A DNA stretch of 64,000 nt, taken from the IMG/VR virus record IMGVR_UViG_3300035522_000179, positions 1 through 64,000 of that record; one strand, written 5' to 3'. The notes beneath the pieces are model-generated. The model saw only the letters and a program-made list of their open reading frames with translations, ran no database searches and was not told the origin of the DNA. The position numbers and the translations under genes are program-made. The DNA is from a virus. Its lineage: Duplodnaviria; Caudoviricetes. Of the stretch, positions 18,371 through 49,749 are shown in pieces (the first letter of the stretch is position 1; every line of letters starts with the position of its first letter).

Positions 18371-18914
18371 TGTAATCTCCTTTCGAATTCGTTTTCTGAA
18401 GTCCTGAAACCCTTGTATTTACTGGGTATTTTCACGATGTTGTACATTGTTACGCATTTGACGATTTGGCGAATTTGCGTTTGTCCTACTTTGCCGGGAA
18501 CTTTGGGATAGATCCTATTTTTGTTGTCCAACTTCCCGAAAATACTGAACGAAAAACCGCGATTTTTCAATATTTTTTGCAATTGATAATCTTTCGATAT
18601 ATAAAATTACAAATATCAATTGTTATATTATGTCAAAGATAATTTAGTACCAAAACATTGCTGCCGCGGAGCGGTTAACCGGTAAGAGAATCAGTTCTAT
18701 GGGGTTCGTATCCGCGGTCTTTAAGTTTCGACTCCAGATGTAATCTCGCCTCTGGCGTTAGCCTTATACTATTATATAATATAGGGAAAAAGCGAATTTC
18801 CAAAAAGGTTCTTTCGCTAAATAATTGTTATAGGCTAATGAAAAATAATTTAAAAATATTTTCAACTATCCTCCTTTCTATTTTCTAACTAATAAAATAA
18901 TATATTTCTATTAT

Positions 18915-25926: not shown

Positions 25927-28296
25927 ATGCCTGATTTATTCAATGAAAATGAATCAGAAGAGAAAATGAGTCCTTCTGATAAAAAACGAAATGAATCAAT
26001 CATTAAAAATATAGATTCCATGTTAGATCAGATGGAGCTGTCCTTATATGGTACAACAAAAAAAGCTGATCAGGAATCATTGATTTCTCAGTTTAACACG
26101 ATTGTGAAATCACAAATGGATGGCTTAAACCATCAACAGGGAAATGATGTATCGTCCTTCATGGCAAAGCTTTATGATTCGGATAAAAAGAGATCTTGGA
26201 ATTCTCCGGATTTAGAGACCTTTTTAAACTCCGATGATGGACAGGTCATCAATTTCTTATCAGATGCTTATAAAAATGATATGGTGAAATTTCAGGATTT
26301 AAATGAGATCTGTTCCCAGCTTATCGAGTTAAATGAAGCAATCCTGGTAACACGTGATGCCATTGTATCACCAGATTTAACGGATGGTGGAGTTTCTAGA
26401 TCCTTTGAGTTTGATTCAGATGAAGATGATGAGAACTATTCTTCCAAGATCAAAAATATGGAAGAGAACTTCAAACTTCAACAGATGGTCAAAAACCATA
26501 TCATTCCAAAGACCTTAAGTTATGGTCAGTATTATGCCTATATCATCCCTTATTCAAAGATCTTTAGTGATTTTTCAAAGAAGATGAATGATCCTGTAAC
26601 AGGTAGAAGTTTTGTAGCAGATGCCATGCATTATCAAGAATCTACTCTGATGGATTTTTATGAGGAATCGGTAAAAGATCAAGTAACGAATAAGACTTCT
26701 ATGGAAGACTTAAAAGAAAACTACTTAAGAGAATGCGCAGAAGAATTTGTCTCTCAGTTTTCGGATGTGGAGATTCGTACGCTTGGAAAGTCTGTGAATG
26801 CAACAGATAAAGAAAACTTCACCGAAAAAGTAATGGATGAAATTGGGACCATCATGGATAACATTGTTGTTTATCCCGAGGATACCCCAATTCCTTTTGT
26901 TACCGAAGGAGCAGATTCTTTGGCAGAATTATTCAAGGAATTTTCTGAAAGTGGAGAAAAGAATCTTTTTACAGAAGTCACCCATATGGATAAGGGTGTT
27001 TACGATACCAAGGATTATAAGAAGAAAGTTAAAAAGACTGAAAAAGATTTCGGAAATATTACTGATTGCTATATCAAACAGGTTGATCCGATTCATATGA
27101 GACCATTAAAGATCTTAAATAGAACCATTGGATATTTTTATATTCGGGAAGAAGATATTAAACCGTCTACTGGAATTTTGAGTAGTACGATTTATTATAA
27201 TAAATACGATAAAAACGGAAGACAGAGAACGATCATCGATAACTTGGTGAATCGAATCGTTTGCTCTTTTGATAAGAAGTTTTTAAAGACCAACGCAGAT
27301 GTGAAAGAAATCATCGCAGATGCTTTGATGTATTATGATTTAAATTCTAAGAAATTGAAATTCCAATATATTCCTGTGGAATATGTTTGTGAGTTTAAAG
27401 TAAACGAAGACGAGAATAAGAATGGTGTTTCTATCGTTCAGCCGTCTTTGTTTTATGCAAAACTGTATCTCATGCTGTTGTTATTTAAGATTACCTCTAT
27501 CATTTTGTATTCCAATGATCAAAAGGTAAACTATATCAAAACTTCTGGAATTGATAAAAACATCGCAAATAAAATACAGCAAATTGCAAGGGATAAACAG
27601 AATCATCAGATCAATATCATGGATTTGATGAGTTACACTACCATGCTTCGGAAAGTGGGAAATGGTGGAGAAATGTACATCCCTACAGGAAGAAATGGAG
27701 AAAAAGGTTTCGAGACGGAAATCTTACAAGGTCAAGAGGTTCAGTTAAATAATGACTTAATGGAACTTCTTCGAAACTCCTATATCTTGGGAACTGGTGT
27801 ACCTTCTGCAATTATGAACTACTTAAATGAAGCAGACTTTGCAAAATCAATCGAAGTGGCAAACACCAGATTCCAAGGTCGTGTGATGAGTTACCAGATT
27901 GACTTTAATGAATCCATCACCAGATTCTACCAGATGGTTGCAAAGTATTCTGGAATCACCGATAACAATGGAAAAGAGATTCACTTTAAGTTTACGCTGA
28001 CTCCTCCGAAGTTTACCAATAACGTTGTAAAACAGGATGCCCTCGGAGCATTTGATGCAATGAAACAGTCTATCTTGACAACAGTACTTGGAGATCAGTG
28101 GAATAACGATCCAGTGAAGATTGAAATTGCGGAAGAACTTACCAGAAAAATCTTTACAAAATATATGCCGGCAATTGACCTGGAAGAGATTATGGGATGG
28201 AAAGATGAGATTCAGTTGAATCTGATGAAGAAGAAACTGGAACCTGAAAATAAAAATACTGATAATATTGATGACTTTGATGACGAACAAATGTAA
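25927..28296 (+). CDS. Portal protein
   Basis: LSYGQYYAYI, GFETEILQG, ILGTGVPSAIMN...DFAKSIEVANTRF, typical of T4 gp20/jumbo phage portals. Confidence 0.75.
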   Translation: MPDLFNENESEEKMSPSDKKRNESIIKNIDSMLDQMELSLYGTTKKADQESLISQFNTIVKSQMDGLNHQQGNDVSSFMAKLYDSDKKRSWNSPDLETFLNSDDGQVINFLSDAYKNDMVKFQDLNEICSQLIELNEAILVTRDAIVSPDLTDGGVSRSFEFDSDEDDENYSSKIKNMEENFKLQQMVKNHIIPKTLSYGQYYAYIIPYSKIFSDFSKKMNDPVTGRSFVADAMHYQESTLMDFYEESVKDQVTNKTSMEDLKENYLRECAEEFVSQFSDVEIRTLGKSVNATDKENFTEKVMDEIGTIMDNIVVYPEDTPIPFVTEGADSLAELFKEFSESGEKNLFTEVTHMDKGVYDTKDYKKKVKKTEKDFGNITDCYIKQVDPIHMRPLKILNRTIGYFYIREEDIKPSTGILSSTIYYNKYDKNGRQRTIIDNLVNRIVCSFDKKFLKTNADVKEIIADALMYYDLNSKKLKFQYIPVEYVCEFKVNEDENKNGVSIVQPSLFYAKLYLMLLLFKITSIILYSNDQKVNYIKTSGIDKNIANKIQQIARDKQNHQINIMDLMSYTTMLRKVGNGGEMYIPTGRNGEKGFETEILQGQEVQLNNDLMELLRNSYILGTGVPSAIMNYLNEADFAKSIEVANTRFQGRVMSYQIDFNESITRFYQMVAKYSGITDNNGKEIHFKFTLTPPKFTNNVVKQDALGAFDAMKQSILTTVLGDQWNNDPVKIEIAEELTRKIFTKYMPAIDLEEIMGWKDEIQLNLMKKKLEPENKNTDNIDDFDDEQM

Positions 28297-33165: not shown

Positions 33166-33642
33166 TCAAATCATTTCAAGTAACAAATCTCTTTCTTCTT
33201 CACTGATTTCTCCATACCGACAAGATTCGTAAATCTCCAAACGAAGATCATCCGTAGATTCTTTGATTCCTTTGAGTTTTTTCTGTGCATCCAGATATCT
33301 GCCTGCTTTGTATTTTTCTTCCGGAGATTCTCCCTCATTGCCATGATACTGCATCCAGTTGCTTTTCGTGTTTTTTGCATATTGTTTGCCGGCATCACTC
33401 TTACATCCACGAGGACTGTATTTTGTGATATCAGACCCAAGTCTATTAAATGCATCAGTTTTTATAGCACTCATTTTGGTATGATAGTAATCAGCTTTTT
33501 TATGTGCAAGATTAGTATTCATACTATCAAATATGTCACGTTTTTTCCTTGCTTTGATATATTCATCCTGTAATTTATTCGCCCATTTGTTATACGCATT
33601 TGCTTCCATCACGACATCATACAATTCATCAAAATTAGCCAT
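33166..33642 (-). CDS. Tagged cassette protein, type A
   Basis: MANFDELYDVVMEANAYNK...KESTDDLRLEIYESCRYGEISEEERDLLLEMI. Confidence 0.85.
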   Translation of the reverse strand: MANFDELYDVVMEANAYNKWANKLQDEYIKARKKRDIFDSMNTNLAHKKADYYHTKMSAIKTDAFNRLGSDITKYSPRGCKSDAGKQYAKNTKSNWMQYHGNEGESPEEKYKAGRYLDAQKKLKGIKESTDDLRLEIYESCRYGEISEEERDLLLEMI

Positions 33643-33690
33643 AATTATTTCCCTCTCTTTTTACAGATTTTATTGGTCTACATTTCTGTA

Positions 33691-33734
33691 CCTGTATAAA
33701 ACAATAATACTAAAGTATTATTGTTTTATACAGG
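33691..33734. repeat. 44-bp palindrome, copy 1 (core AA)
   Basis: cctgtataaaacaataatact-aa-agtattattgttttatacagg. Confidence 0.95.
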
Positions 33735-33852
33735 AGGAAAAAACTTTTTATAAAAATTTATCATCCCCTCCTGTTTTTAAATCCCTAGAAAAAACAAATT
33801 AATAAATGATTTCAAAAACGAAAAAAATAAGAAAGATAAAGGAGAAAAAGAA

Positions 33853-34578
33853 ATGGAACAGCCATATACACCTAGGAAATCAAAGGACGAATTGAAATCC
33901 GTAAGGTTCGTATTAAAAGATGTTAAGAAAAGAGTTCAGCAAGCAAAAAAAAACGGGGACGTAGATGAATTAGAAAAATGCAATGAAAAAATAGATGTAC
34001 TAATCGATCATATGAAAAAAGTAAAATTGAATGGGATAGGGTTTGAAGAACAGAGAAAAACGTATGCAAATATGTCTAAATTGTCGTTAGAAATTGGAGC
34101 AGTTTTTGGTTTGATGTATGTGGCACAAGGTAAATTACTAGAGAAATTTATGAAGAAATCTATCGAGAATCGTTCAATTGAATATAGTGCAGTTTATACG
34201 TGCCCTCCTAGCAAAGAACGAGATAAATTAGAGGAAGAGTGTGACAGACGATATGATAGAGATTATAAAATTGCTTCTAATTGGGAAAGCATGAAGGATT
34301 TAACTGGAATCATATCTATGGGAGGTGCTGTAGGAGCTATAGAGACCGGAATAGAAAGTACCGGTGGGGCAAGATTACAAATGAAAATGAATAAACAGAT
34401 AAAAATTCTTGAAAAAATGAGTAGAGAGTTAAAAGCAGAAATCCAGCAATTGAAATCTCAACAGCGTGGTATAAAAGAGTCTGTGAATGATGTAAGACTT
34501 GAGATTTATGAGTCTTGCTATTACGGTGATATTACAGAGGACGAGAGAGATCTGCTTCTGGATATGATTGAAGAGTAA
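33853..34578 (+). CDS. Tagged cassette protein with unique payload
   Basis: Ends KESVNDVRLEIYESCYYGDITEDERDLLLDMIEE. Confidence 0.85.
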   Translation: MEQPYTPRKSKDELKSVRFVLKDVKKRVQQAKKNGDVDELEKCNEKIDVLIDHMKKVKLNGIGFEEQRKTYANMSKLSLEIGAVFGLMYVAQGKLLEKFMKKSIENRSIEYSAVYTCPPSKERDKLEEECDRRYDRDYKIASNWESMKDLTGIISMGGAVGAIETGIESTGGARLQMKMNKQIKILEKMSRELKAEIQQLKSQQRGIKESVNDVRLEIYESCYYGDITEDERDLLLDMIEE

Positions 34579-34628
34579 TATAAAACTAGATAGAATCATT
34601 ATTTGATTCTATCTAGTTTTTTCTTTTC

Positions 34629-34686
34629 CTGTAAAAATAACAATCTATCTAATAGATAGATTGTTATTTTTACAGTTTTATACAGG
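34629..34686. repeat. Variant 47-bp palindrome plus half-site
   Basis: ctgtaaaaataacaatctatcta-a-tagatagattgttatttttacag followed by ttttatacagg. Confidence 0.8.
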
Positions 34687-34711
34687 TAGAGTATTATAAG
34701 GAGGATTATAA

Positions 34712-35248
34712 ATGAGTAGATTTGATGAATTGTATGATGTGGTGATGGAAGCAAATGCGTATAACAAATTGGCGAATAATTTAAAAGATGAGTATGATAG
34801 AGAACGCAAGAAACGTGATAGTTATCGTCGTCGTTTAAGAAATTTGTCACCTGATAATCTCCTAATTAACAAAGCTGATTATAATACTAACAAAGTTGAT
34901 TATACTAACAAAGCTAATTATCATGATACAAAAATGCATGTTGCAGATACGGCGTACTATAATCAGATCGGTGGTAATATCCAAGATTACTGTCCTCACG
35001 GGAATAGATTTGGTACTTGCGAAGATTATAGAATTGCAAGAAAGAAGAAGAAAGAGTGGATGAAAAACCATGGAAATGTTGGAAAATCTCCGGAAGAGCG
35101 ATACAAAGAAGGCAGATATTTAGACCAACAGAAAGAACTCAAAGGAATCAAAGAATCTGTGGATGATATCCGTTTGGAGATTTATGAATCCTGTCGGTAT
35201 GGAGATATCTCGGAAGAAGAAAGAGATTTGTTATTGGAAATGATTTAA
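34712..35248 (+). CDS. Tagged cassette protein, type A
   Basis: MSRFDELYDVVMEANAYNK...EIYESCRYGDISEEERDLLLEMI. Confidence 0.85.
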   Translation: MSRFDELYDVVMEANAYNKLANNLKDEYDRERKKRDSYRRRLRNLSPDNLLINKADYNTNKVDYTNKANYHDTKMHVADTAYYNQIGGNIQDYCPHGNRFGTCEDYRIARKKKKEWMKNHGNVGKSPEERYKEGRYLDQQKELKGIKESVDDIRLEIYESCRYGDISEEERDLLLEMI

Positions 35249-35296
35249 AGAATCTAGAAGAGATATATTAATATATCTCTTCTAGATTCTATTTTT

Positions 35297-36637
35297 TCAG
35301 ATCATCATTATTAGCTCATCTCTATCTTGCTCTGTTATCAATCCGTCATTAAATGATTCCATAATCATTAATACTGTATCAATATCTGAATCATCTCCAG
35401 ATTCTAATTCCAATGTTCTATCACCAGCATAAAAGTTCGGAAATAATGTTGTAATAATATCAGTTCTTCCTTGGAACATGGTATCAATTGCGGTTCTTGT
35501 TGCTGCAGTAATTACAAGATACTCCCCATTCACATTACCATCCAAATAATTCTGGTAAATCGTTTGAAGATCATTTATGCTTTCTTGAATCTCTTTTTTT
35601 ACTTTAGGATTCACGCCCGTTTTTGCGAGTTCTCTTTTCAGAAGTTCGATTGCGATAGTCGTTCTATTGGAAGAACTACCATGCATAGGACTAGTAAACT
35701 CATCTAAAATACTTGCTTCCGCCAATCGAATATCCGTTAATACTCGTATAATTGGGAAAGATGAAACTTTCTTAGTTCTTTTAAATTGCATTGATTGATC
35801 CGATTTATATAAAGCGGAGATAAGTTCTGGTCCATAACCATACGCAATAGCAAAAGAATCCGCAAATTCTTCTGATTTTTTCCCAGGTAACGTAAACAAT
35901 TGACTCACGGGGGATAATAAAACTTCAAGAGGTGTAAAAGGAATATTTATATAGGTGGATAATTTACGGATTTGAAGACCAATCCAATCGCCGGATTTAA
36001 GTAAAAATCCGTAAATAGATTTTATGATTGGAATCTTTTCAAAAATAAAACCTATAATTTTTTCACAAATCATATTAATCCTTCCAGGAATGAACTTTAA
36101 AGAATTCACATTATGAAATAAAGTACTTATCGGATCTATAAAATTTCTTTTTCTTAATTCATTCACAATACGAATGAACTTGATTAACCATGAAACCCCT
36201 TTATAAAAACTAAAATCAAAATTATGACCAATTTCATGCAAGATTAGGGCAGTGTACTCTCTCGGGGTAATGTCAATAGAGCGAACAAGTGCAGTTGATA
36301 AATTGATCAATGCAACGGTAGAGTGCGTTTTGTCATAATACCCTTTTTTTGAATCTATCTCAAACATACATTTTCCGGATACAACAGAATCTATAGAAGA
36401 ATATGTGGCTATTTGAGGAGAGAGTTCGGAATCTTTATACCACATGCAATAGGTTTCTTTAAACCCAAATTGCTTTGTGATTAAATTCTGTAATATTTTA
36501 TTCTCTGTGGAATTAGTTACATCATAATGGGGATCAATTTTAATTTTATCTATTATAATTCCAATTTGTTTTTCAATATTTGGAATCAATCCAGCTTTTC
36601 CGTAATATGCTTCCTGATATACATCAAACTCTTTCAT
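35297..36637 (-). CDS. Zinc metallopeptidase (HEXXH, M48-like) with divergent C-terminal tag
   Basis: LILHEIGHNF, SEEFADSFAIAYGYG; ends IMESFNDGLITEQDRDELIMMI; begins MKEFDVYQE-A. Confidence 0.75.
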   Translation of the reverse strand: MKEFDVYQEAYYGKAGLIPNIEKQIGIIIDKIKIDPHYDVTNSTENKILQNLITKQFGFKETYCMWYKDSELSPQIATYSSIDSVVSGKCMFEIDSKKGYYDKTHSTVALINLSTALVRSIDITPREYTALILHEIGHNFDFSFYKGVSWLIKFIRIVNELRKRNFIDPISTLFHNVNSLKFIPGRINMICEKIIGFIFEKIPIIKSIYGFLLKSGDWIGLQIRKLSTYINIPFTPLEVLLSPVSQLFTLPGKKSEEFADSFAIAYGYGPELISALYKSDQSMQFKRTKKVSSFPIIRVLTDIRLAEASILDEFTSPMHGSSSNRTTIAIELLKRELAKTGVNPKVKKEIQESINDLQTIYQNYLDGNVNGEYLVITAATRTAIDTMFQGRTDIITTLFPNFYAGDRTLELESGDDSDIDTVLMIMESFNDGLITEQDRDELIMMI

Positions 36638-36806
36638 TTTATATAATTTTTCCTTTCTATTCAGTTACGGTTCATATTAGTATTTTGTTTTGTACATTTT
36701 CAAACTAGCAATTTTAATATAAACATATTTTTAAAATAAAAAATTTGTTTTTATACAGGAATACTTTTTATAGTAAAATCTTTTTATAAAAAGGAGAAAA
36801 ATAACT

Positions 36807-37547
36807 ATGGCTAATTTTGATGAGTTGTATGATATGATTAATGGTGCAACTTATGAATCCATGTTTGAGATTGACGATGATATGGATACAGATGATATTG
36901 CATATATCGAGAGTTGCAGGGATCTTACTGAGTACCTCGAAAAAACACGTATCACAGACAATGATGGAGAAGGTCCTTCTACTTTTAGAGAAAAACTCTC
37001 TAGATTTGCATTTAATAAAAAAGAAGATCTCAGAGAGGGCAAAGCTCGCATACAAGGTGCATTCGACAACGCAAGGATTAAGAAAATTCAGAAAGATATA
37101 GAGAAGAGAGAAAACTCTGATGGTGACGAGACTGTTCCTCAAAAGAAAATTTTTGCTCATTTGAGTAAAGGTGAAATCCTTGCAGGTGTTGGACTCTTAG
37201 CAGCCGCTGGTGTTGCTTCTCTTACCGTGATCAGACATAAGACAAAGAACAAAGAGATTGTTAAGACTGTAGATGATTTGAAGAAAGAGATTGAAGAGAT
37301 CAAGAAGTCTGCTAAAGCAGGTGAAATTTCTGTTAGAGAAGCTTGGAGTGAAACAAGAAGAATTAACAAAGAGATCAAAGCTCTCGAGAAAGCTGCTGAG
37401 GCTGAAGAGAAAGCTAATGCTGCTGAGGAAGCGAAGAAGGCTATGAAGGAGTCTGCTGATGATGTAAGACTTGAGATTTACGAGTCTTGCTATTACGGTG
37501 AGATTTCCGAGGACGAGAGAGATCTGCTTCTGGATCTTATGGACTAA
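36807..37547 (+). CDS. Tagged cassette protein with TM segment
   Basis: MANFDELYD start; ILAGVGLLAAAGVASLTVI; ends EIYESCYYGEISEDERDLLLDLMD; half-site ttgtttttatacagg upstream at about 36745. Confidence 0.85.
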   Translation: MANFDELYDMINGATYESMFEIDDDMDTDDIAYIESCRDLTEYLEKTRITDNDGEGPSTFREKLSRFAFNKKEDLREGKARIQGAFDNARIKKIQKDIEKRENSDGDETVPQKKIFAHLSKGEILAGVGLLAAAGVASLTVIRHKTKNKEIVKTVDDLKKEIEEIKKSAKAGEISVREAWSETRRINKEIKALEKAAEAEEKANAAEEAKKAMKESADDVRLEIYESCYYGEISEDERDLLLDLMD

Positions 37548-37605
37548 TAAAACAATAAATGACCATGAACTTATCGATTATGATAAGTTCATGGTCATAT
37601 TTTTT
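37526..37605 (+). repeat. About 80-bp direct repeat (gene end plus terminator), second copy at about 43535-43613
   Basis: cttctggatcttatggactaataaaacaataaatgaccatgaacttatcgattatgataagttcatggtcatattttt present twice. Confidence 0.9.
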
Positions 37606-37612
37606 TATTATG

Positions 37613-38464
37613 TTAAATCATCTCCAAAAGTAAATCTCTTTCTTCTTCCGAGATTTCTCCATACCGACAGGACTCATAAATCTCAAGTTTGATATCATTG
37701 TCAGAAGTAGATTCTTTCATGATTTTAGAAAATACTGCGTTTCTTGCAGATACTTCTCTCATGGTTTCCTCATATCTTTTATCTATTTCAGCAAGACTGG
37801 TCTCGATCTTTGCTTGAACAGCAGGGGAATCAACTTTCACTTTTTTAACTTCTCTATTGAGTTGTATAAGTAATTTTTTCAAATCCTTATAAATCCGATG
37901 CAATTCTGTTACGAGATCATTGTATTTGGTAACTTCTGCATCTATTAATGAAAGTTTTTTTGTAGCATTCACAAATTCCTTTGAATTGTAATTCTTATTC
38001 ATTACTTCAGTTGTATTTGATTTTGCTGAAGAGATTCCTCCAACATCACTGGCAACTTTAGTAATAGATAATCCTCCGTTGGAATTTTCAGTCAATGTTA
38101 CCGTAGGAGCTCCTGATGTTTCAGCGATTATAGCATAAGCCAATGTCATAGTTTCCAGGCGACTGGCATGTTCATTTAATTCCTTCGTAACTTTATTAAT
38201 TTCTTTTTCTTTTTTTAGAATCTCATCCCGAATTGATTTCAATTGCGGATTTTTGTTGTATCCATTCTCTTTTCTCTTATTATCTGTGATGACAAGTCCA
38301 GCAACAAGCCCAACAACAGCAGAGACCAAAGCTCCGATACCTACCATTGGAGCATATTTTTTAATTTTTTGCTTTGTGGCAGGTGACATTTTTTCTACGT
38401 AATAATTATCTTCATTAACCGATTCTACTGTGCAATATAACTCTGTAAATTTATCCATATTCAT
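37613..38464 (-). CDS. Tagged cassette protein, type B (TM plus coiled coil)
   Basis: MNMDKFTELYCTVESVNEDNYYVEKMS; ends EIYESCRYGEISEEERDLLLEMI. Confidence 0.85.
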   Translation of the reverse strand: MNMDKFTELYCTVESVNEDNYYVEKMSPATKQKIKKYAPMVGIGALVSAVVGLVAGLVITDNKRKENGYNKNPQLKSIRDEILKKEKEINKVTKELNEHASRLETMTLAYAIIAETSGAPTVTLTENSNGGLSITKVASDVGGISSAKSNTTEVMNKNYNSKEFVNATKKLSLIDAEVTKYNDLVTELHRIYKDLKKLLIQLNREVKKVKVDSPAVQAKIETSLAEIDKRYEETMREVSARNAVFSKIMKESTSDNDIKLEIYESCRYGEISEEERDLLLEMI

Positions 38465-38494
38465 TTTCTCCTTTTTAGAATAAGAATGAGTCAA

Positions 38495-38538
38495 CCTGTA
38501 TAAAACAATAATACTTTAGTATTATTGTTTTATACAGG
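38495..38538. repeat. 44-bp palindrome, copy 2 (core TT, inverted relative to the others)
   Basis: cctgtataaaacaataatact-tt-agtattattgttttatacagg. Confidence 0.95.
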
Positions 38539-38586
38539 TACAGAAAGCAGATTAGTACAAATATAAAAAAAGAGAGGGAAATAATT

Positions 38587-39096
38587 ATGGCTAATTTTGA
38601 TGAATTATATGATGTTGTAATGGAAGCAAATGCGTATAACAAATGGGCGAATAAATTGAAAAATGAGTATGATGATCATATGAAATCATATCATGATAAT
38701 CAAGACAAAATAATAAATAATAATAAATCCATTTTTGACCCCAGATCTAAAGTATGGGGGTATGCGGCAGATGCTAAAAAACATTTCAATGCCGCATATG
38801 ATATCGAGGATCAATATCGTTCTCAGACTGGTGAAAAAGAAATGAATTATTCACCACACGGAGACGAAAGAAGTGTTTATCAATCTTCTGTTCCGAAGCA
38901 AACTTGGATGAAAAAACATGGAAATGTTGGAAAATCTCCGGAAGAGAGATACAAACCAAATCGTTATTTAAACATCCAACAAAAAATAAATGGGACGAAG
39001 GAATCTGCAAATGATATTCGTTTGGAGATCTATGAGTCTTGTCGGTATGGAGAAATCAGTGAAGAGGAAAGAGATTTACTTTTGGAAATGATTTAA
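38587..39096 (+). CDS. Tagged cassette protein, type A
   Basis: MANFDELYDVVMEANAYNKWANKL...EIYESCRYGEISEEERDLLLEMI. Confidence 0.85.
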   Translation: MANFDELYDVVMEANAYNKWANKLKNEYDDHMKSYHDNQDKIINNNKSIFDPRSKVWGYAADAKKHFNAAYDIEDQYRSQTGEKEMNYSPHGDERSVYQSSVPKQTWMKKHGNVGKSPEERYKPNRYLNIQQKINGTKESANDIRLEIYESCRYGEISEEERDLLLEMI

Positions 39097-39147
39097 AGTA
39101 ATAAAAATCTGGTAAAGGAATTTTAAATTCCTTTACCAGATTTGTTT

Positions 39148-41622
39148 TTATAATAATTCAGACATCTCTCGTTCAATTACTTCTAACACATCGATATCTT
39201 CAAATGTCGATTCCACTACGGGTCTCTCTTCCACTTTGGGATTTAAAATAGAATCTACAAAGTCATTAATTGCCGATTCCATTTTTTGATCTTCATCTGT
39301 TTCTTTGCTTTCTTTCAGATGTTCTACCCAGTCTTTCAGCGCGCCCATATAGCGTTTCTTCCATTTTTCAAATGCTTCATTCGGCGTTCCATCTTTTTCG
39401 TTGTAAGTATATGCTCTTACATAAATTCCAGTTGTATCGGAGTTTTTATTCAAATACCATCCTTCTGGAATCGTATCAAACTTATACTTCTTATCAAAGG
39501 TCAGTCGTGCAGTAGTGTAAATCTTTCCATGGTATACACCATCTCGATAACCATCTTCTTTAATTCTAGATCTATTATGTCCAGAGCAAGAATACTTCAC
39601 TGTATATCCAAGCTTATTCAAAAGATTTACGATGGGTTTAATATCCTCATCGATCTCATCTTCATCACTTTCTGTGACAACCAGTTCCTTATCAAAGTCA
39701 ATCTGATTCAAAACCTTCTCACAGATTTTTTCTGTTTCATTCTGAGAAACCAAATCGGTTGCAAATCGGTTCACTCTTTCTGTAAACTTGATATCATCCA
39801 GTTTGGTGTCAAACACAGATTCAAATACGTTATAGCAAGAATCAAACAAATTCGTACTAGGAGATTCATTGATCAGATCAACCATGTAATCAAACACATT
39901 ATCTGTATCAACACAAGCCTCTTCACAAACAGAATTGATCATAAACACCAATTCTTCTTTTCGGTTTTCAACGGATTCAGAGATGGTGTTGTAATTGCAA
40001 TCCTTTGCTTTCTTCATAAGAGAAAGTTTTTTATCACTCACCTCTTCAAAGGAATTTTCATAGTACGGATGATTCTCATTAAGAGTTCCATTATACGTGT
40101 CATTTACCCACTCGTTAATAATGATACTCTCCTTTCTAAAGTTCTTAACAGATTCCAAGACATCTTTTTCAGATTTCCTTTCTTCTCTTTCTTTCTTTTT
40201 CGCAGCTTCCTCTTTCTTTGCTCTCTTAACCTCTTTATAGTTTTCGATTGCATGATCAAAGGCGTTTTCTGCTTTATCTCGGTTTGCATCGTAGTTCGGA
40301 TCATCTTCCGGATCTTTTTCCAGAATCTTCTTTAACTTTCTTGCAGCGTCGCGAACATCGGATGCATCTGATTTCAATCCTAATTCTACCTTGTCTTCAA
40401 TTGCAGATTCTTTTACTGCACCTTGAATTTCATAAGAAATATCAACTCCAGTATTTACAGAACTAAATTCGCAGGTAATCAACATCTCTTTTATGCGTTT
40501 TATATAATGAGTGATCTGTCCATTTTCTTTTACTGGACTAAATCCACAAGAAGTGATGGTTTTCCGAATCATATTAGGATCTGCTTTATCGTTTGAAAAA
40601 GAAAATCCATATTTATTCTTTTTCGTGTTCAGACAAGATTTAAAACTAGTTGCATCATCTCCAGGATTAGAAAGTTTTAAATCTTTCTTCAACTTATCAA
40701 ACAGCTTTCTTGCTTCGGTATCAAAGGTGGGATTGTTTTTAAATACTGCAGCAGCTTCCGTAGTAACAAAGAGATTATTTGAACGGAACCATTGACCAGT
40801 ATATCCCAAAACGGATTCCAAAGAGTTAAACCTAGGAATCATTCTATCCTCTTCTCTTACCACATCCTCTGTTAAATCGTCTTCATTGGAATTAATTTCT
40901 GCATCTGTACTAGAAACCATATCCTTCACAGATACTCCGGAAAGATCTTTCGATAACACATTTCCAGTGAGAGGAATTACAGGAGCCATTGCACCAACAG
41001 ATTCATCGTCATTAAACAAAGACTGTGTAAATCCAGTGAGTACTGATGCATCCTCTAAAGTGATTGCGCCAGTAAGTGCTTTGCTACAGATTACTTTTTC
41101 GTATAAGTAATCTCTACTTACCCTTTCATCCGGAAAAGCACGGTAAAGATTTCTTGTAAGATCATCAAATCCATCCTCTCCAGCAGACTCGATGTATTTT
41201 GCAAGTTCATCTCTTTTCTCATCTGCTACAAGACTTGCCATCTTTCCTACCGTAGAATCGTTTTCCCAGGTAGATTCCAAAGTATAATCTTCATAAAAAG
41301 AATCTCCTTCCCTTCTTTTGATGATCTCTTTGAAAGGAAGAACTGCTTCTCCAAAGAATAAATTATTTACAGTTGGAATCTCATCTCCAAGCTCGGAAAC
41401 ATCCAATCCTCTTTCTACCAATGCTTCTTCATCTGCTCTTACAATATCAATCATTGCAAGGGCTTCGGATTCCGTAAGAAATCCAAAATTATAGTTGTCA
41501 TTAATTGCATCTAAAATTTTAATATCTTCTGCGACTTTCGCTTCCATGTAACGAGAAGTAAAAGGAATATCAAAAGTTGCAGGAATAGGTCGCATGTCAA
41601 AATTACTCATTTTTTCCACCAA
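39148..41622 (-). CDS. Large late protein rich in xES/xEA sites with a C-terminal TYW3-like domain; probable internal head protein
   Basis: Many MEA/LES/KES/TES motifs; EIDEDIKPIVNLLNKLGYTVKYSCSGH; late motif upstream. Confidence 0.55.
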   Translation of the reverse strand: MVEKMSNFDMRPIPATFDIPFTSRYMEAKVAEDIKILDAINDNYNFGFLTESEALAMIDIVRADEEALVERGLDVSELGDEIPTVNNLFFGEAVLPFKEIIKRREGDSFYEDYTLESTWENDSTVGKMASLVADEKRDELAKYIESAGEDGFDDLTRNLYRAFPDERVSRDYLYEKVICSKALTGAITLEDASVLTGFTQSLFNDDESVGAMAPVIPLTGNVLSKDLSGVSVKDMVSSTDAEINSNEDDLTEDVVREEDRMIPRFNSLESVLGYTGQWFRSNNLFVTTEAAAVFKNNPTFDTEARKLFDKLKKDLKLSNPGDDATSFKSCLNTKKNKYGFSFSNDKADPNMIRKTITSCGFSPVKENGQITHYIKRIKEMLITCEFSSVNTGVDISYEIQGAVKESAIEDKVELGLKSDASDVRDAARKLKKILEKDPEDDPNYDANRDKAENAFDHAIENYKEVKRAKKEEAAKKKEREERKSEKDVLESVKNFRKESIIINEWVNDTYNGTLNENHPYYENSFEEVSDKKLSLMKKAKDCNYNTISESVENRKEELVFMINSVCEEACVDTDNVFDYMVDLINESPSTNLFDSCYNVFESVFDTKLDDIKFTERVNRFATDLVSQNETEKICEKVLNQIDFDKELVVTESDEDEIDEDIKPIVNLLNKLGYTVKYSCSGHNRSRIKEDGYRDGVYHGKIYTTARLTFDKKYKFDTIPEGWYLNKNSDTTGIYVRAYTYNEKDGTPNEAFEKWKKRYMGALKDWVEHLKESKETDEDQKMESAINDFVDSILNPKVEERPVVESTFEDIDVLEVIEREMSELL

Positions 41623-41839
41623 CTTTCCATAGAATTATCAGATTGTTTTTGCATCTAAGGCAAACTAACATTAAAATAATGAAAATACCAAATAGACGTA
41701 AAATGCTTGTTTAAGTTTCTGATTTGTTTTAATCTCCCATTGTTTTTTGAATAAGGAAGACACTCTGTATGTAGTGTCTTCCTTATTCTTTTCGTTAAAT
41801 TTACACTGGGAAACAATTTTTTAAAGAGGTGAAGATAAT

Positions 41840-42199
41840 ATGATTACAAATACATCAAATATCTTTGAATTTAAAACAAAAGAAACAGGATATATTGCAA
41901 AAGCTTGTGCTGCGCCAGAAGCAGGAGAGAAAAGAGAAATTTATATTCCAAGACTTATGCCGAATATAAAATCAGGAACCCCAAAAACATCCACTCTATC
42001 TTCTAGAGGAAATTTGGTGTTTAAAAACGCACCCGCTTGTAAAGTTCAAGCAGCAACCGTTTTGAAATCCCAAAACTATATCATGGTTCCTTATGAGAAA
42101 AATAAAACATGGGATGATCCAGAAATTAAGAGTATGACCCAAATTACTTGCAATTGCAAAAATAACACCATTGCTGGAATCACATTCTCAAATGATTAG
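41840..42199 (+). CDS. Small late protein, possibly baseplate hub/spike-related
   Basis: IYIPRLMPNI; AACA-N6-TAA at 41812-41824; adjacent to the gp53-like gene. Confidence 0.4.
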   Translation: MITNTSNIFEFKTKETGYIAKACAAPEAGEKREIYIPRLMPNIKSGTPKTSTLSSRGNLVFKNAPACKVQAATVLKSQNYIMVPYEKNKTWDDPEIKSMTQITCNCKNNTIAGITFSND

Positions 42200-42210
42200 A
42201 GGAGTAAACT

Positions 42211-42630
42211 ATGAGTACACAAAATAGTAGTACACTGGAAACCCAGGTATATAATGAATTGAAAAATGATTTGATTTATAGGGATTTAAATTCTACGCTT
42301 GAAATATTAGATCGAGAGAGCAATGAAAAGATTGTAATACCTTATATTTCTACGGTATCAAAATATATGGATTTTTTAAAATCAATTATATTAGAAGTGG
42401 AATTGACAGATATTCAATATGAGAGATATCGGCAAAATCCTCATGCGGTATCGGAAGCATTGTATGGAACAACGCAGTATTGGGATATCTTACTGAAACT
42501 AAACAACTGTGTTAGTAGATTTGAGTTCAACAAAAAGAAAATCAAATACTACGACCCATTAGAATTAGTGACGTATTTGAATGAGTTAGTGATAAAAGAA
42601 GACGAACTTGCAAATACAAGTTCGTACTAA
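42211..42630 (+). CDS. Baseplate wedge protein (T4 gp53/LysM-like)
   Basis: YRQNPHAVSEALYGTTQYWDILLKLNN. Confidence 0.65.
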   Translation: MSTQNSSTLETQVYNELKNDLIYRDLNSTLEILDRESNEKIVIPYISTVSKYMDFLKSIILEVELTDIQYERYRQNPHAVSEALYGTTQYWDILLKLNNCVSRFEFNKKKIKYYDPLELVTYLNELVIKEDELANTSSY

Positions 42631-42654
42631 TTTTTATAATTTACCCCCCCCCCC

Positions 42655-42698
42655 CCTGTATAAAACAATAATACTAAAGTATTATTGTTTTATACAGG
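42655..42698. repeat. 44-bp palindrome, copy 3 (core AA)
   Basis: Identical to copy 1. Confidence 0.95.
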
Positions 42699-42728
42699 TT
42701 GACTCATTCTTATTCTAAAAAGGAGAAA

Positions 42729-43556
42729 ATGAATATGGATAAATTTACAGAGTTATATTGCGCAGTAGAATCGGTTAATGAAGATAATTATTACGTAGAA
42801 AAAATGTCTGCAGACGCTAGTTCGAAACTTAAAAAAGCTGCAGCAATAGCAGGTGTTGGAGTACTTGTTTCTGGTATTGTTGGACTTGTTGCTACAGATA
42901 GTAAGAGGACAGAATATGGATATAATAAAAATCCTGAGATGAAAGTTCTTCGAGATCAAATTCTCAAGAGAGAAAAAGAACTCAAAAAAGCAGTAACTAA
43001 CCTTGAACAACAAACAAAAAGGGTGGAAGCAATTGCACAAAGTTACAATACAATTGCAAACCAAATTGGAAAAGTTACTATTACATTGGAGGAAAACTCC
43101 AATGCAGGGTTAAGCATTAAAGAAGAGAATAAAATTGGATTTATTAGGGGAAAGAGTTCCGAAAAGGAAAATCCGAATTATTCTACGAAAATCTATATGG
43201 ATGCTTCTAAAAAAAGAGAAATCTTAAATATGGAAGTTGAAAAATACAATGTGCTAGTTAAAGAAGTAAACGATATTTATAAAGATTTACAGAAGTTGCT
43301 CAAAAAATTCAATAGCGCTGTGAAGATGTTGAAAGTGTCACCTAAAGTACAGGCAAAACTTACTGAAGAATTGAGTAAGATTGAAGAAAGATATAGTGAC
43401 GCTTTAACCGATATTAATGAAAGAAATGCCCAGTTTTCTAAATTTGTGAGAGAATCGGAAGAAGATACAAATGCAAAACTTTTTGTCCATGAGTCTTATC
43501 GATGTGGTGATATTACAGAAGAGGAAAGGGACATTCTTCTGGATCTTATGGACTAA
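42729..43556 (+). CDS. Tagged cassette protein, type B (TM plus coiled coil)
   Basis: MNMDKFTELYCAVESVNEDNYYVEKMS; ends VHESYRCGDITEEERDILLDLMD. Confidence 0.85.
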   Translation: MNMDKFTELYCAVESVNEDNYYVEKMSADASSKLKKAAAIAGVGVLVSGIVGLVATDSKRTEYGYNKNPEMKVLRDQILKREKELKKAVTNLEQQTKRVEAIAQSYNTIANQIGKVTITLEENSNAGLSIKEENKIGFIRGKSSEKENPNYSTKIYMDASKKREILNMEVEKYNVLVKEVNDIYKDLQKLLKKFNSAVKMLKVSPKVQAKLTEELSKIEERYSDALTDINERNAQFSKFVRESEEDTNAKLFVHESYRCGDITEEERDILLDLMD

Positions 43557-43619
43557 TAAAACAATAAATGACCATGAACTTATCGATTATGATAAGTTCA
43601 TGGTCATATTTTTATTACA

Positions 43620-44138
43620 TTAAATCATTTCCAAGAGAATATCTCTTTCTTCTTCACTGATTTCTCCATACCTACAGGATTCATAAATCTCCAAACGAAG
43701 ATCATCCACAGATTCTTTGATTCCTTTGAGTTCTTTCTGTTGGTCTAAATATCTGCCTGCTTTGTATCGTTCTTCCGGAGATTTTCCAACATCACCATGC
43801 TTTTTCATCCAATTTTTTTTAACACATTTAAAAGCAAATCTATCTCCGTAAGGTTCATCGTCATTTTTAAATCCATGTCTACTGTAATCTTTCAAACTAC
43901 TCATTCCGTCAACACTGTCATTATATCTACCTACTGCATGGGATCCTTTTTCAAAATGATCTTCAGCTTTCTTTCGTAATTCTTTTTTATATTCAGGGTC
44001 ATCTGCGTTATTAGCTAGTCTATTAAGTAATATATGCTTTTTTACATCCTTTTTATATTCATCCTGTAATTTATTTGCATATTTATTATATGCATTTGCT
44101 TCCATCACGACATCATACAATTCATCAAAATTAGCCAT
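43620..44138 (-). CDS. Tagged cassette protein, type A
   Basis: MANFDELYDVVMEANAYNKYANKL...EIYESCRYGEISEEERDILLEMI. Confidence 0.85.
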   Translation of the reverse strand: MANFDELYDVVMEANAYNKYANKLQDEYKKDVKKHILLNRLANNADDPEYKKELRKKAEDHFEKGSHAVGRYNDSVDGMSSLKDYSRHGFKNDDEPYGDRFAFKCVKKNWMKKHGDVGKSPEERYKAGRYLDQQKELKGIKESVDDLRLEIYESCRYGEISEEERDILLEMI

Positions 44139-44186
44139 AATTATTTCCCTCTCTTTTTACAGATTTTATTGGTCTACATTTCTGTA

Positions 44187-44230
44187 CCTGTATAAAACAA
44201 TAATACTAAAGTATTATTGTTTTATACAGG
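44187..44230. repeat. 44-bp palindrome, copy 4 (core AA)
   Basis: Identical to copy 1. Confidence 0.95.
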
Positions 44231-44259
44231 GGGGGGGTAAATTATAAAAAACTTCAAAA

Positions 44260-44302
44260 AAAATAAGCTAAGAGATGTATGTTGCATCTCTTAGCTTATT
44301 TT
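44260..44302. terminator. Bidirectional terminator
   Basis: aaaataagctaagagatg / catctcttagcttatttt. Confidence 0.75.
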
Positions 44303-46837: not shown

Positions 46838-47542
46838 ATGGTAGATAAAAACGATATTCGATTTTGTTCTTCTGCCACACTGTTTCAAAATTCCACCTGT
46901 GTGTTTGCAGAATATCTAGATTGTGTGCAACTGTCTGGAATGGTTTTATTAGATACCATAAGAAAAAGCACAAAGTTAGAAAAATACCTTGACTTAGAAT
47001 TAATTCGATATTTGGAATTGCCATCTTTATTGGAGTACTATATCAATCGAAAAGATAAAAATCCTTTGGCGGATTTATGGAAAGGAGATAGTGTTCCATA
47101 TGAAGAGTTGGATGAACAGGTAAGAGAATTTTATCGATCAAATGAAATCTTTTTTGATGTACAGTTAACAACCACGGTTCATCCGTTGTTAAAAAACTTA
47201 TTAGCAAATGCTCTTACTAATGATATTCGAATCTATTGTGAAGAACCTTATCCAGGATTAGAAAACGATATAAAAGAAAAATTTGATGGGAAGGCAACCC
47301 TTGTAACAGGAAAGCTGGAAGATGTTTTGCAAACTATTCCTGGAGATACCACTTATTTTTTTGCAGACATTATGAATGTCCTTACCTTGGAGGAAGTCGG
47401 GAAACTGGATTACTCCGCAATTATGATTCCTTCGGATTATGGTTACAACTATGATGACTCCGAAGAAAAGAAGTTTTTAGTAGATATGAATCAGCTAGCA
47501 GAAAAGCATATTTTCAAATGGGGAACCTACAAAACTTGTTGA
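46838..47542 (+). CDS. Hypothetical protein
   Basis: ATG at 46838 with ggagg RBS (the track start at 46544 overlaps SSB). Confidence 0.7.
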   Translation: MVDKNDIRFCSSATLFQNSTCVFAEYLDCVQLSGMVLLDTIRKSTKLEKYLDLELIRYLELPSLLEYYINRKDKNPLADLWKGDSVPYEELDEQVREFYRSNEIFFDVQLTTTVHPLLKNLLANALTNDIRIYCEEPYPGLENDIKEKFDGKATLVTGKLEDVLQTIPGDTTYFFADIMNVLTLEEVGKLDYSAIMIPSDYGYNYDDSEEKKFLVDMNQLAEKHIFKWGTYKTC

Positions 47543-47601
47543 TTTCTAATGATCTTAAAAACAGAACCTTAACAAATTTCAGTTTTAGAAAGGAAGAACA
47601 A

Positions 47602-49749
47602 ATGGAAGATCGAGTTAGTTTTATTGAAGGAGTAACCAAATACGACCCCGAAATAAACGTGGTTGGGAAAGAAGTAATGGATGAAAGAGTTGCCGTGGTA
47701 TTTGATCAGATTGCAGAAATTCTGCAAAAATCTTTGGGACCTATGGGCGCTCATACCATTATTTCTCAGTCCCCTTTTTATCATGTGACGAAAGATGGAT
47801 TTACCATCATGAAGAACTTAAGATACAATTCTGAGTATGGTTATGTGGACCAGGTGATTGCAGGAATGATCTCAGACATCTGTGGAAGATTAAACTTCGC
47901 AGTAGGAGATGGCACAACTTCTGCAGTTGTTGCATCCAACCATATGTATCAGGTTTTCTTAAGTAATAACGAAGAACTGACACAGAAGTTCTTCTTGCCT
48001 AGAAATATTATCAATCGTATGAAAGAACTTACGAATGATATCATAGAGGATTTAAGTTCCAATGCAACCGATATCAAGTCTCTTCCGGTTGATGAGATGT
48101 GTAACGCAATAAGAGACGTTGTATACATCTCTTCCAATGCGGATAAGGAAATGACCGATATTATTGTGAACTTATACAAAGAACTGGAATATCCAGCAAT
48201 CAATGTGGTAAAATCCGCAGATGGAGTTACCAGAGGAAAAGTGATTGATGGATTTATGTTTCCTGCAAAGCTTATGGATAAGCTTTATGTAAATAACGAT
48301 AACAAAACGCAGGAAGGAACGGATTACGACATTCTGATCTTTGATCACAAGGTGGGATTACCGGCTTATAATTATATCTTAAAGCCCCTCTCCCATATGT
48401 CGAAAACAAGAGGTCGTAAGCTTATTTGTTTGGCTCCGAACTACGATGAAGTAGCATTACAAGGAGATATCCAAAATGCTTTGAATGCAGAGTATCGGGC
48501 AACCAGAGATATTTCTTTGGTTCTTATGGGATATAAAGCAACGACATCGAACGACAGAGCCAGAGTTACGGATTTGGCAATGCTTTGCAATACCCAAGTA
48601 ATCACGAAATCCATGGAGAATGAACTTTGTGCAAAAGTAGAGAAGATCCTCATGAATCCGGATAATAACGGCGTAATAGCAGATTGTGATTTCCCTTTCA
48701 ATATGGATTTTCGAAATATCGAAGGAATTAAAATTGTTCTTCCATTGGATCATGTTACAGTGACCTATACGGAGGAAGAGTTTGGCACGATGTTCTATAG
48801 TGACGCTTCTCGTACAGAAGAAGATATCTATTTGAGAGTCGGATTTGTTGGTGAGGTATCTCTGGCATTGGACGGAGAATCCACCTTCAACAAATTCTAT
48901 TATGATCAAATCATTTACGATAGATATTTAAAAGATGCAGAGATGCAGCTTGAACTCGTAACAGAGAAATACAAGAGACTTGCTACTTTTAACTTCGAGA
49001 TTGATGAAGCAAGAAAGAGACTTCTTGGGTTGAAACTGAAGATGGGTCAGATCGAAGTCGGTGCAACCTCTGAGTTTTCTCAGGAGTTTTTAAGAGATGC
49101 TATGGATGATGCCGTACTTGCGGCACAGTCTGCTTATTCCAATGGAATTATCCTTGGTGGACACATCAGCCTATTGAGATCGATTCGGAACCTGATGAAG
49201 AAATCTACAAATGAATCGGATAAGTTTTTATTGGAGTGCTTCTTTGAAGCGTTCTGTCATGTTCGATTCTCTGTACTTGGAAATGGTTTCGACAATAAAG
49301 TCATTAGCATAAATAATCTTTTGAAGGAATATCGAAAGGAAGACAAGTATAAAGATGCACCGTCAGATACAAGGATTATCTCCGATGAGTTCTTCAATAT
49401 TTTACAAAAGTACTCAGGAGTTGAAATCACTACAAAAGATGAAAATTCGTATGCGAAAATGTTTACTTTTATACACTGTCTTTTGAGTGAACTTCATATC
49501 GATAACTCAGATAAATATAAAGATATCACCTTGTTTGATTTAATCGTTGAATTTGAGATTTACATGGGTCTTGTGTTAAATTTGGATATGAATCAGTCCA
49601 GCACCAAGCCAGTAATCTATTTCGACGATAAAGTGGTAAATAGTCTTGCAACGGATCGAGAGATTTTAATTGCTTCTTCTGACCTTGTTGGTTTGCTTAC
49701 CACAGGAAATCAGTTGGTAATTTCTAGATCAAACACCGCAAGATATTAA
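47602..49749 (+). CDS. groEL: GroEL-like chaperonin
   Basis: SLGPMG, VTKDGFTIMK, VGDGTTSA, DDAVLAAQSAYSNGIILGG; late motif at 47560-47572. Confidence 0.9.
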   Translation: MEDRVSFIEGVTKYDPEINVVGKEVMDERVAVVFDQIAEILQKSLGPMGAHTIISQSPFYHVTKDGFTIMKNLRYNSEYGYVDQVIAGMISDICGRLNFAVGDGTTSAVVASNHMYQVFLSNNEELTQKFFLPRNIINRMKELTNDIIEDLSSNATDIKSLPVDEMCNAIRDVVYISSNADKEMTDIIVNLYKELEYPAINVVKSADGVTRGKVIDGFMFPAKLMDKLYVNNDNKTQEGTDYDILIFDHKVGLPAYNYILKPLSHMSKTRGRKLICLAPNYDEVALQGDIQNALNAEYRATRDISLVLMGYKATTSNDRARVTDLAMLCNTQVITKSMENELCAKVEKILMNPDNNGVIADCDFPFNMDFRNIEGIKIVLPLDHVTVTYTEEEFGTMFYSDASRTEEDIYLRVGFVGEVSLALDGESTFNKFYYDQIIYDRYLKDAEMQLELVTEKYKRLATFNFEIDEARKRLLGLKLKMGQIEVGATSEFSQEFLRDAMDDAVLAAQSAYSNGIILGGHISLLRSIRNLMKKSTNESDKFLLECFFEAFCHVRFSVLGNGFDNKVISINNLLKEYRKEDKYKDAPSDTRIISDEFFNILQKYSGVEITTKDENSYAKMFTFIHCLLSELHIDNSDKYKDITLFDLIVEFEIYMGLVLNLDMNQSSTKPVIYFDDKVVNSLATDREILIASSDLVGLLTTGNQLVISRSNTARY

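Follow-up and report, generated by a model that had tools for sequence, protein, structure and literature searches.

The 64,000-nucleotide stretch of DNA analysed here (the window) is the first 64 kb of the IMG/VR virus record IMGVR_UViG_3300035522_000179, a 249,613-bp Caudoviricetes genome rated as complete by CheckV. Between positions 33166 and 44138 it holds an array of nine genes, in both orientations, whose products share a C-terminal module of about 30 amino acids (aa), referred to below as the tag. In our reading, to which we give a probability of roughly 0.55, the array is a hyperplastic locus of prohead-core or internal head proteins that carry the module as a cleavable address, its genes being reshuffled where recombination acts on the promoter, leader, tag and terminator sequences that they have in common. 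Because the tag is common to unrelated products and to a putative capsid scaffold, it is probably an address label for head loading. Late genes of the array would yield proteins that are built into the prohead core and then probably either stay in the mature head or are ejected from it. The module would let this cargo co-assemble with the core, an S80/S77-family protease would cut after Glu at [IV]-x-E-[SA] sites bracketing the payload, and removal of the acidic ends would free basic mature proteins. At the DNA level, the palindrome, leader, tag and terminator sequences would provide repeated homology, at which recombination could duplicate, invert, insert and re-pair cassettes in a manner resembling that of the promoter early stem-loop (PeSL) elements of T4-type phages. 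What appears to be new is the position-independent helix-loop-helix module, a leader that is half of this module, module copies in a scaffold candidate next to the protease gene, and a palindrome with the character of a late promoter.

The array genes are named here after their payloads: type A (A1–A4), type B (B1 and B2), B0, U1 and Pep. A tag profile of 42 columns, built from the nine window C-termini, matches exactly these nine among the open reading frames (ORFs) of the window, each time at the extreme C-terminus (E 1e-18 to 1e-25), in agreement with the first-pass annotation, which had described nine genes with a common C-terminal tag. The tag system extends beyond the array, a correction to that annotation. 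The profile search brings the genome total to 13 tagged genes, and the four outside the window (genome 125206-125970, 132605-133306, 133273-133950 and 134026-134571) all carry the tag at the very C-terminus; a weaker internal match falls in the ORF at genome 204267-205574. A search of 1.84e9 representative proteins with the same hidden Markov model, a check the annotation had proposed, gave 225 clusters at E<=1e-3, of which 41 reach E<=1e-10. The 148 clear matches among the 150 listed of these 225 clusters place the module C-terminally in 105 proteins, N-terminally in 14 and internally in 29, and about a third of the listed proteins have at least two copies. Some members are mini-proteins of 83-126 aa composed of two modules and acidic linkers, while others join the tag to domains of the GNAT, HAD and metallophosphoesterase types. 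A match to a protein with ankyrin repeats (P0052) was set aside as a false positive of the short profile. No model in Pfam or PHROGs covers the module, and a metagenome scan with the tag alignment gave, among the matches listed, only G001 again, one of the relatives compared below. In another relative, G002, five ORFs at scattered positions give six module matches.

The family consensus is K-E-S-V-D-D-[LI]-[KR]-L-x-I-Y-E-S-C-x-x-G-E-I-[TS]-E-E-E-R-D-x-L-L. AlphaFold2 models of a type A protein and of a two-module mini-protein give each module as a helix, a five-residue loop and a second helix; the predicted template-modelling score of the mini-protein, 0.31, is too low to define how one module packs against the other. 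Two candidate identities were rejected: a true calcium-binding EF-hand, on the ground that the ligand positions 3 and 5 are not conserved, and a double-glycine leader of the bacteriocin type or of ribosomally synthesised and post-translationally modified peptides, which is ruled out by the lack of GG, by payloads of 100-450 aa and by the neighbourhood of structural genes. The shared element is an acidic helix-loop-helix of about 30 aa that stands at the C-terminus, at the N-terminus or at both.

Seven window genes (A1–A4, B0, B1 and B2) also carry a short N-terminal leader, as the first-pass annotation had stated. A1–A4 and B0 start with MANFDELYD or MSRFDELYD, B1 and B2 with M(NM)DKFTELYC, and Pep has the related start MKEFDVYQE-A. 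The short form M-A-N-[YF]-x-E-L-x-x-x-[VI]-phi-E-[SAG] opens 48 of 142 foreign representatives, and in eight or nine of the 142 a full module occupies the N-terminus in the same register (aromatic 0, E 2, L/I 3, V/I 7, E 9, S/A 10). By this register, the leader is the first helix of the tag module. In the seven window genes and the 48 foreign representatives, position 4 of the leader is F/Y, position 6 is E and position 7 is L. Residues 1-7 of the leader fit the pattern M-x-x-[YF]-x-E-[LF] of the T4 capsid-targeting sequence (CTS), a likeness of pattern only. The T4 CTS reads MKTYQEFIAE (10.1101/2021.01.19.427310), with positions 4 and 7 serving targeting and positions 8 and 10 serving processing (PMC9026906). 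Type A orthologues illustrate how freely the module is placed: P0157 has a full module at the N-terminus and no C-terminal tag, while P0156 has modules at both ends. The type A junction E-ANAYNK is invariant whatever stands upstream of it, and it therefore has the appearance of a cleavage junction.

The prohead protease gene (genome 205591-206529), found with AR9 protein probes, lies away from the array; its product matches Peptidase_S80 with 35.6 bits (cut-off 23.4) and S77 weakly (E 6.5e-4). Sixteen nucleotides downstream of it is a conserved gene for a very acidic protein of 435 aa (genome 204267-205574, minus strand; also L013:4268-5575) with three module-like copies. Its orthologues in G001 and G002 follow proteases that are 65-73% identical, and they hold three module copies, the last at the extreme C-terminus. 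By position, composition and conservation, this protease neighbour is a candidate for the scaffold or for a core protein; giant phages lack a confirmed counterpart of T4 gp22 (PMC5694885). Downstream of the scaffold-like gene, a 213-aa ORF (genome 202644-203285, minus strand) starts with a partial module (…KLMIYE…VVES) and may encode another core component.

In about 88% of module copies helix 1 closes with [IV]-x-E-[SA], in about 70% the module is preceded by K-E-S, and [IV]-x-E-[SA] sites stand on both sides of the payloads. The protease has similar sites in its conserved C-terminal region, and the capsid protein has them in its N-terminal region. For comparison, T4 gp21 cleaves after L/I-X-E (PMC9026906) and SPN3US gp245 after A-X-E (PMC10052503). 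With leader and tag removed, the computed isoelectric point (pI) of the core is 9.2-9.6 in 11 of the 13 genes, while that of the full-length proteins is mostly 5.4-7; T4 internal proteins are basic, like these predicted tag-free cores. The tag and leader thus look like prohead-targeting or processing sequences, and we infer packaging and cleavage from gene and protein anatomy. The first-pass annotation had proposed such packaging and processing signals, and the proposal gains circumstantial support from the protease-neighbour copies, the CTS-like leader, the [IV]-x-E-[SA] sites, the basic cores and the late motifs described below.

Exchange between cassettes has support in the DNA. By their coding sequence, the tags form classes that do not follow the payload families. 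U1 and B0 have unrelated payloads, yet their tags match at 90% of nucleotides and 96% of codons; the tag DNA of B1 belongs with that of the A genes, whereas that of its paralogue B2 belongs with U1 and B0; and the tags of the paralogues U1 and U2 are in different classes. The unit formed by B2 and A4 starts immediately behind the stop codon of a conserved gene and extends almost to a terminator, and it is bounded by a 13-nt inverted repeat, C13 and G9 runs and a palindrome at each end. At its left end (42631..42698) are an inverted-repeat arm, the C13 run and palindrome copy 3 (42655), and at its right end (44187..44250) palindrome copy 4, the G9 run and the other arm, followed by the displaced terminator at 44260-44302. 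In G002 the orthologous conserved gene is followed directly by its terminator, which supports an insertion of the B2–A4 unit between the two in the present genome. The only three G/C homopolymer runs of at least seven in the ~250-kb genome are C13 at 42644-42656, G9 at 44229-44237 and C11 at genome 133987-133997, and they directly abut the 5' sides of the tagged genes B2, A4 and A5.

A contig from another sample, L035 (2665 bp, JGI 3300043109), is 100% identical to 42655-43890 and to 38495-39967 of the window and joins B2, the palindrome and A3, exactly the arrangement that inverting the segment from palindrome 2 to palindrome 3 (38.5-42.7 kb) would give. The two breakpoints share a 107-nt perfect inverted repeat, consisting of the palindrome, the 5' untranslated region of the B gene and the start of its leader, so homologous recombination would be sufficient to produce L035. 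Comparison of the locus in relatives, proposed in the first-pass annotation, showed that its content and order are not fixed. In G001 and L030 the flanking genes are 54-66% identical and the genes between them are entirely different, over the span from the g125-like gene to the 44708-like or g123-like genes; the Pep orthologue in G001 retains its own diverged tag. L017, a 1-kb contig of a close relative, has an A-A-B order, an A2-type palindrome and a different order of neighbours. Look-ups with g139 and B2 for further variant contigs gave contigs that break at the repeat or repeat the L035 arrangement, and a look-up of public sequencing runs for 34301-44300 listed none, nor any RNA holder. 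The annotation had described a modular locus in which tags and DNA sites allow exchange; the exchange is supported by tag mosaicism, the insertion signature, L035 and the relatives, while the palindrome is probably a promoter duplication that gives portable homology and is not necessarily a dedicated recombination site.

The four 44-bp palindromes begin at 33691, 38495, 42655 and 44187, and no further copy exists in the 249,613 bp. Each stands 5' of a type A or B gene, as the first-pass annotation had noted, but their identity is not complete: the central AA/TT is flipped between copies, and A2 is preceded instead by a different 47-bp palindrome followed by a half-site. B0 and Pep share a degenerate palindrome. 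Of the 67 long perfect hairpins in the genome, most have the A-run and T-run flanks of bidirectional terminators, and the only repeated ones are the four palindromes and one terminator (37559, 43568). The four palindromes have no A/T-run flanks and sit 5' of genes.

Promoter motifs may explain this position. AR9-like early and late motifs are both strongly enriched before genes of this genome. The early motif TATATTAT lies upstream of 20 genes vs 2.1 expected and is absent near the A and B genes. The late motif AACA-N6-TA, after the AR9 late promoter consensus (PMC7598289), is found upstream 45 times vs 8 expected, concentrated 20-60 nt before start codons, and precedes the sheath, capsid protein, protease, U1, U2, Pep and B0 genes as well as tagged genes of relatives. 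The type A and B genes have no canonical late motif. The palindrome arm ACCTGTATAAAACAA, however, equals a 15-mer ahead of the late-promoter motif of the capsid gene (genome 224018-225769, found with AR9 probes, away from the array) and is close to the Pep promoter region; no sigma70 or early motif was found in the arms. Since the palindrome is an inverted duplication of the sequence before the capsid gene's late motif, we read it as two late-promoter-like arms facing a common centre, probably a compact bidirectional late promoter. An exact canonical late promoter within the palindrome was considered and ruled out. The AR9 late promoter requires deoxyuridine, and so the present phage may also have uracil DNA.

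Several points weigh against the reading of the array as a shuffled set of addressed head proteins. The module was not found in the cultured phages of INPHARED (tblastn of A4, a two-module protein and the bare tag against 50,697 records) or in AR9, which was searched whole. The scaffold candidate is assigned from the three features named above. In giant phages, the known substrates of the prohead protease, except the protease itself, lose N-terminal and not C-terminal propeptides (PMC10052503). Hydrophobic segments in the type B and U payloads are unusual for soluble core proteins. As a late promoter, the palindrome is non-canonical: its AACA and the central TA are 7 nt apart instead of 6, with CT at the N6 position. 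Finally, L035 and L017 are short, end in or span the 107-nt repeat, and could be assembly chimeras.

In another account of the module, possible though on balance unlikely, it is a general pairing or oligomerisation motif, EF-hand-like without calcium ligands, that joins late proteins elsewhere, for example in a membrane-associated assembly or lysis complex, with neither capsid address nor removal by a protease. Many family members with at least two copies or with modules only would suit such a role, as would the hydrophobic segments of type B, B0, U2-U4 and several foreign members, and the loop residues G6, I8 and E12 fit EF-hand geometry as judged from the sequence. Loop positions 3 and 5 lack the usual calcium ligands, however, and pairing elsewhere would not account for module copies in a conserved gene co-transcribed with the prohead protease, for the T4-CTS-like register of the leader, for an E-A junction that is invariant regardless of the upstream part, for acidic ends on a basic core, or for late-promoter motifs of the capsid-gene kind. 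At the other extreme, nothing modular need be involved: the array could be a lineage-specific expansion of paralogues by tandem duplication, with ends shared by descent and purifying selection and with alternative arrangements that are assembly artefacts. A1-A5, B1/B2 and U1-U3 are indeed plain paralogue families, and both L017 and L035 are short and centred on repeats. This we consider highly doubtful: the unrelated U1 and B0 share tag DNA while true paralogues differ in tag class, one payload family has the module at different termini in different phages, unrelated enzyme domains carry the module elsewhere, and the comparison with G002 supports insertion.

The palindromes could also be sites dedicated to site-specific recombination, with AA/TT as a 2-bp crossover core, used by phage serine recombinases to move cassettes as circles in an integron- or invertase-like fashion, which appears improbable. 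Their perfect 21-bp arms about an asymmetric 2-bp centre have the form of such sites, the B2–A4 unit has directly oriented end palindromes within an extended inverted repeat, as expected after integration of a circle, and the inversion breakpoint of L035 lies in a palindrome-containing repeat; moreover, the only long G/C runs of the genome abut cassette 5' ends, and two tandem ORFs have features of recombinases. Yet in each of the four copies the orientation of the centre strictly goes with that of the flanks (TTTA toward A, TAAA toward B), so there is no sign of the palindrome acting independently. The L035 crossover may lie anywhere in the 107-nt repeat, where homologous recombination suffices, tag mosaicism indicates exchange away from the palindromes too, and the palindrome arm recurs ahead of the capsid late-promoter motif. 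The viral contigs scanned gave no further match to the palindrome, and the genome has no tyrosine integrase (Phage_integrase) match. No serine invertase of the Hin/Gin type adjoins the segment, the recombinase-like ORFs being 15-27 kb from the palindromes with a Resolvase match below the Pfam cut-off. An extended form of this idea, an injected arsenal organised like an integron, in which the scaffold-shared module docks cargo from either terminus and is then clipped while the cassettes move as circles through a serine recombinase, we consider very unlikely. The tandem ORFs, 16761-17579 and 17545-18582 (both minus strand), have a MerR-type helix-turn-helix and a weak Resolvase match: the first gives Resolvase at 17.6 bits and the 'transposase' PHROG 6620 at E 2.6e-17, the second MerR_1 at E 0.0066 and PHROG 6620 at E 1e-4. 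They resemble TnpA genes of the IS607 type without a recognisable TnpB. One distant relative has a tyrosine integrase gene (L024:14207-15223) about 4 kb away from its type A homologue.

The layout of the array is as follows. It opens on the left with A1 (33166..33642, minus strand, 158 aa), which has the leader MANFDELYDVVME-A, a basic core and the C-terminal module. Palindrome copy 1 (33691..33734, 21-bp arms, AA/TT centre) separates it from the divergent U1 (33853..34578, plus strand, 241 aa), a tagged gene without short leader and with a canonical late promoter motif at 33792. The variant palindrome (34629-34675) and the half-site TTTTATACAGG fill 34629..34686, 5' of A2 (34712..35248, plus strand, 178 aa), and are conserved in L017. 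Pep (35297..36637, minus strand, 446 aa) has a diverged C-terminal module and a late promoter motif at 36678, and it is followed by B0 (36807..37547, plus strand, 246 aa), with an A-type leader, a class II tag and a late promoter motif at 36721. A bidirectional terminator hairpin (37559..37598) lies between B0 and B1 and recurs at 43568-43607 between B2 and A4. B1 (37613..38464, minus strand, 283 aa from MNMDKF) has a hydrophobic segment, a coiled coil and a class I tag. Palindrome copy 2 (38495..38538), with a flipped centre, stands between B1 and the divergent A3 (38587..39096, plus strand, 169 aa) and belongs with copy 3 to the 107-nt inverted repeat. The inserted unit consists of B2 (42729..43556, plus strand, 275 aa), with a class II-like tag, and A4 (43620..44138, minus strand, 172 aa). 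Convergent gene pairs each have a separate terminator, the other hairpins of this kind being at 35249-35290 and 39105-39143.

The array also includes three untagged genes (39148-41610, 41840-42199 and 42211-42630) that are conserved elsewhere in G002. The first (minus strand, 820 aa) lies behind a late promoter motif and has 47% identical orthologues elsewhere in G002 and G003. The other two (41840..42630, plus strand) encode 119 and 139 aa, the second with weak matches to baseplate-wedge PHROGs; in G002 the orthologous pair is directly followed by a terminator.

The payloads are diverse. The four type A proteins have a core identity of 33-45% and a core pI of 9.2-9.6, and the two type B proteins are paralogues with 48% identity and an N-proximal hydrophobic segment, in keeping with the four basic type A and two type B proteins of the first-pass annotation. 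Its count of two unique payloads is upheld for B0, an acidic protein with one hydrophobic segment, but not for U1, which has the paralogues U2 and U3 in a second locus. Neither Pfam nor PHROGs has a family that matches the A, B or U proteins, and the tagged window proteins scanned gave no Pfam family at E<=0.1 beyond chance-level matches. A Foldseek search of the PDB with the type A model gave nothing at E<=0.001, and its structural neighbours in the atlas are generic helical hairpins. Pep, which has a HEIGH motif, is a putative M48-like zincin; it matches PHROG 2767 (function unknown) at E 7.5e-17 and no Pfam family, and has an atlas feature score of 0.96 to viral clusters, 11-43% of whose members carry PF01435.

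The genome has the marks of a jumbo phage, with PHROG matches to beta subunits of a multisubunit RNA polymerase, tail sheath and terminase. Searched by tblastn, the sheath gives 25-26% matches to the Bacillus phages AR9/PBS1 and the Yersinia phage phiR1-37, and on these protein similarities the phage is a distant AR9/PBS1-like jumbo phage with only remote cultured kin. With AR9 protein probes, the portal gene (25927-28296), two virion protein genes and the sheath gene were found just left of the array. To the right are a GroEL-like chaperonin gene (47518-49749, plus strand; PHROG 5725, E 1e-65) and an ABC-transporter-like gene (61421-63232, plus strand; PHROG 2392, E 1e-121). In more distant relatives, a lone type A homologue adjoins the ABC-like gene.

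The first-pass annotation had not recognised the architecture as described, but close analogues do exist, namely the CTS genes of T-even phages, the PeSL regions and the head paralogues of giant phages; as far as sequence comparison goes, the present system is not a homologous member of any of the three. PeSL elements shuffle cassettes in T4-type phages by homologous exchange (PMC2839356, PMC4122927). There, short repeated promoter or stem-loop motifs of about 50 bp flank non-essential genes in hyperplastic regions, and exchange gives indels, replacements and circles. The motif here likewise lies by variable genes, in four identical 44-bp copies and one variant, 5' of cassette genes, and would serve as a point of exchange; the signs of this are the inversion-type contig L035 and the insertion signature of the B2–A4 unit, and no circle junction was seen. 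The PeSL combines a sigma70-like early promoter with a working terminator, whereas the present element is a perfect palindrome with two late-promoter-like arms and no U-tract, terminators being separate hairpins. The coding repeats, leader and tag, are also used for exchange here, unlike in the PeSL regions. On the DNA side, the array would thus be a second, independent case, and one beyond the T4 group, in which regulatory repeats drive the shuffling of cassettes, with coding repeats acting likewise.

PhiKZ-like giant phages such as SPN3US have variable families of head paralogues with long propeptides (PMC5694885, PMC10052503). They resemble the present phage in having many paralogues of head or ejection proteins, whose numbers vary between phages, conserved N-terminal propeptides that have been likened to the CTS, an S80-type protease that cuts after Glu, and no confirmed scaffold protein. 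Their propeptides are N-terminal, family-specific and 20-254 residues long, in contrast to the portable 30-aa module, and the cleavage motif is A-X-E there and [IV]-x-E here. The tagged window proteins scanned give no match to PF12699, the family of phiKZ inner-body proteins and SPN3US paralogue family A.

Signals for cargo loading at the C-terminus include the cargo peptides of encapsulins, the C-terminal tail of the HK97 protease and the helix-turn-helix of the P22 scaffold. In these systems a short C-terminal element, a helix-loop-helix in P22, docks a protein inside a shell of HK97 fold. The P22 element is basic, unlike the strongly acidic module described here, and none of these signals is related to the module in sequence.

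If the module is a capsid address, a compact and position-independent tag would define a repertoire of packaged proteins by sequence alone. This repertoire would cover a whole uncultured jumbo-phage clade, with at least 225 protein clusters, some of them with enzyme domains. The tag would in addition point to the long-sought scaffold counterpart of giant phages and, like the T4 CTS, could serve to bring foreign proteins into large capsids.

The CTS of phage T4 is carried by the internal proteins IPI-III and by Alt and is processed by gp21 (Mullaney and Black 1996; reviewed in PMC9026906). No homology of the array to IPI, IPII, IPIII or Alt was found with Pfam and PHROG or by tblastn of A4 against 50,697 phage records. 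The leader here is three residues longer than the CTS and is half of a larger helix-loop-helix, the module stands mostly at the C-terminus, may be present in more than one copy and is found in a scaffold-like protein as well, and the phage belongs to a different, AR9-like lineage with multisubunit RNA polymerases. In both systems, a short constant terminal peptide is joined to diverse, basic and non-conserved payloads, the genes of which vary between related phages, and the peptide ends at a hydrophobic-x-Glu site of the kind used by the gp21 family, a protease of which is present in this genome. The address-tag principle suggested by the array probably extends that known from phage T4.

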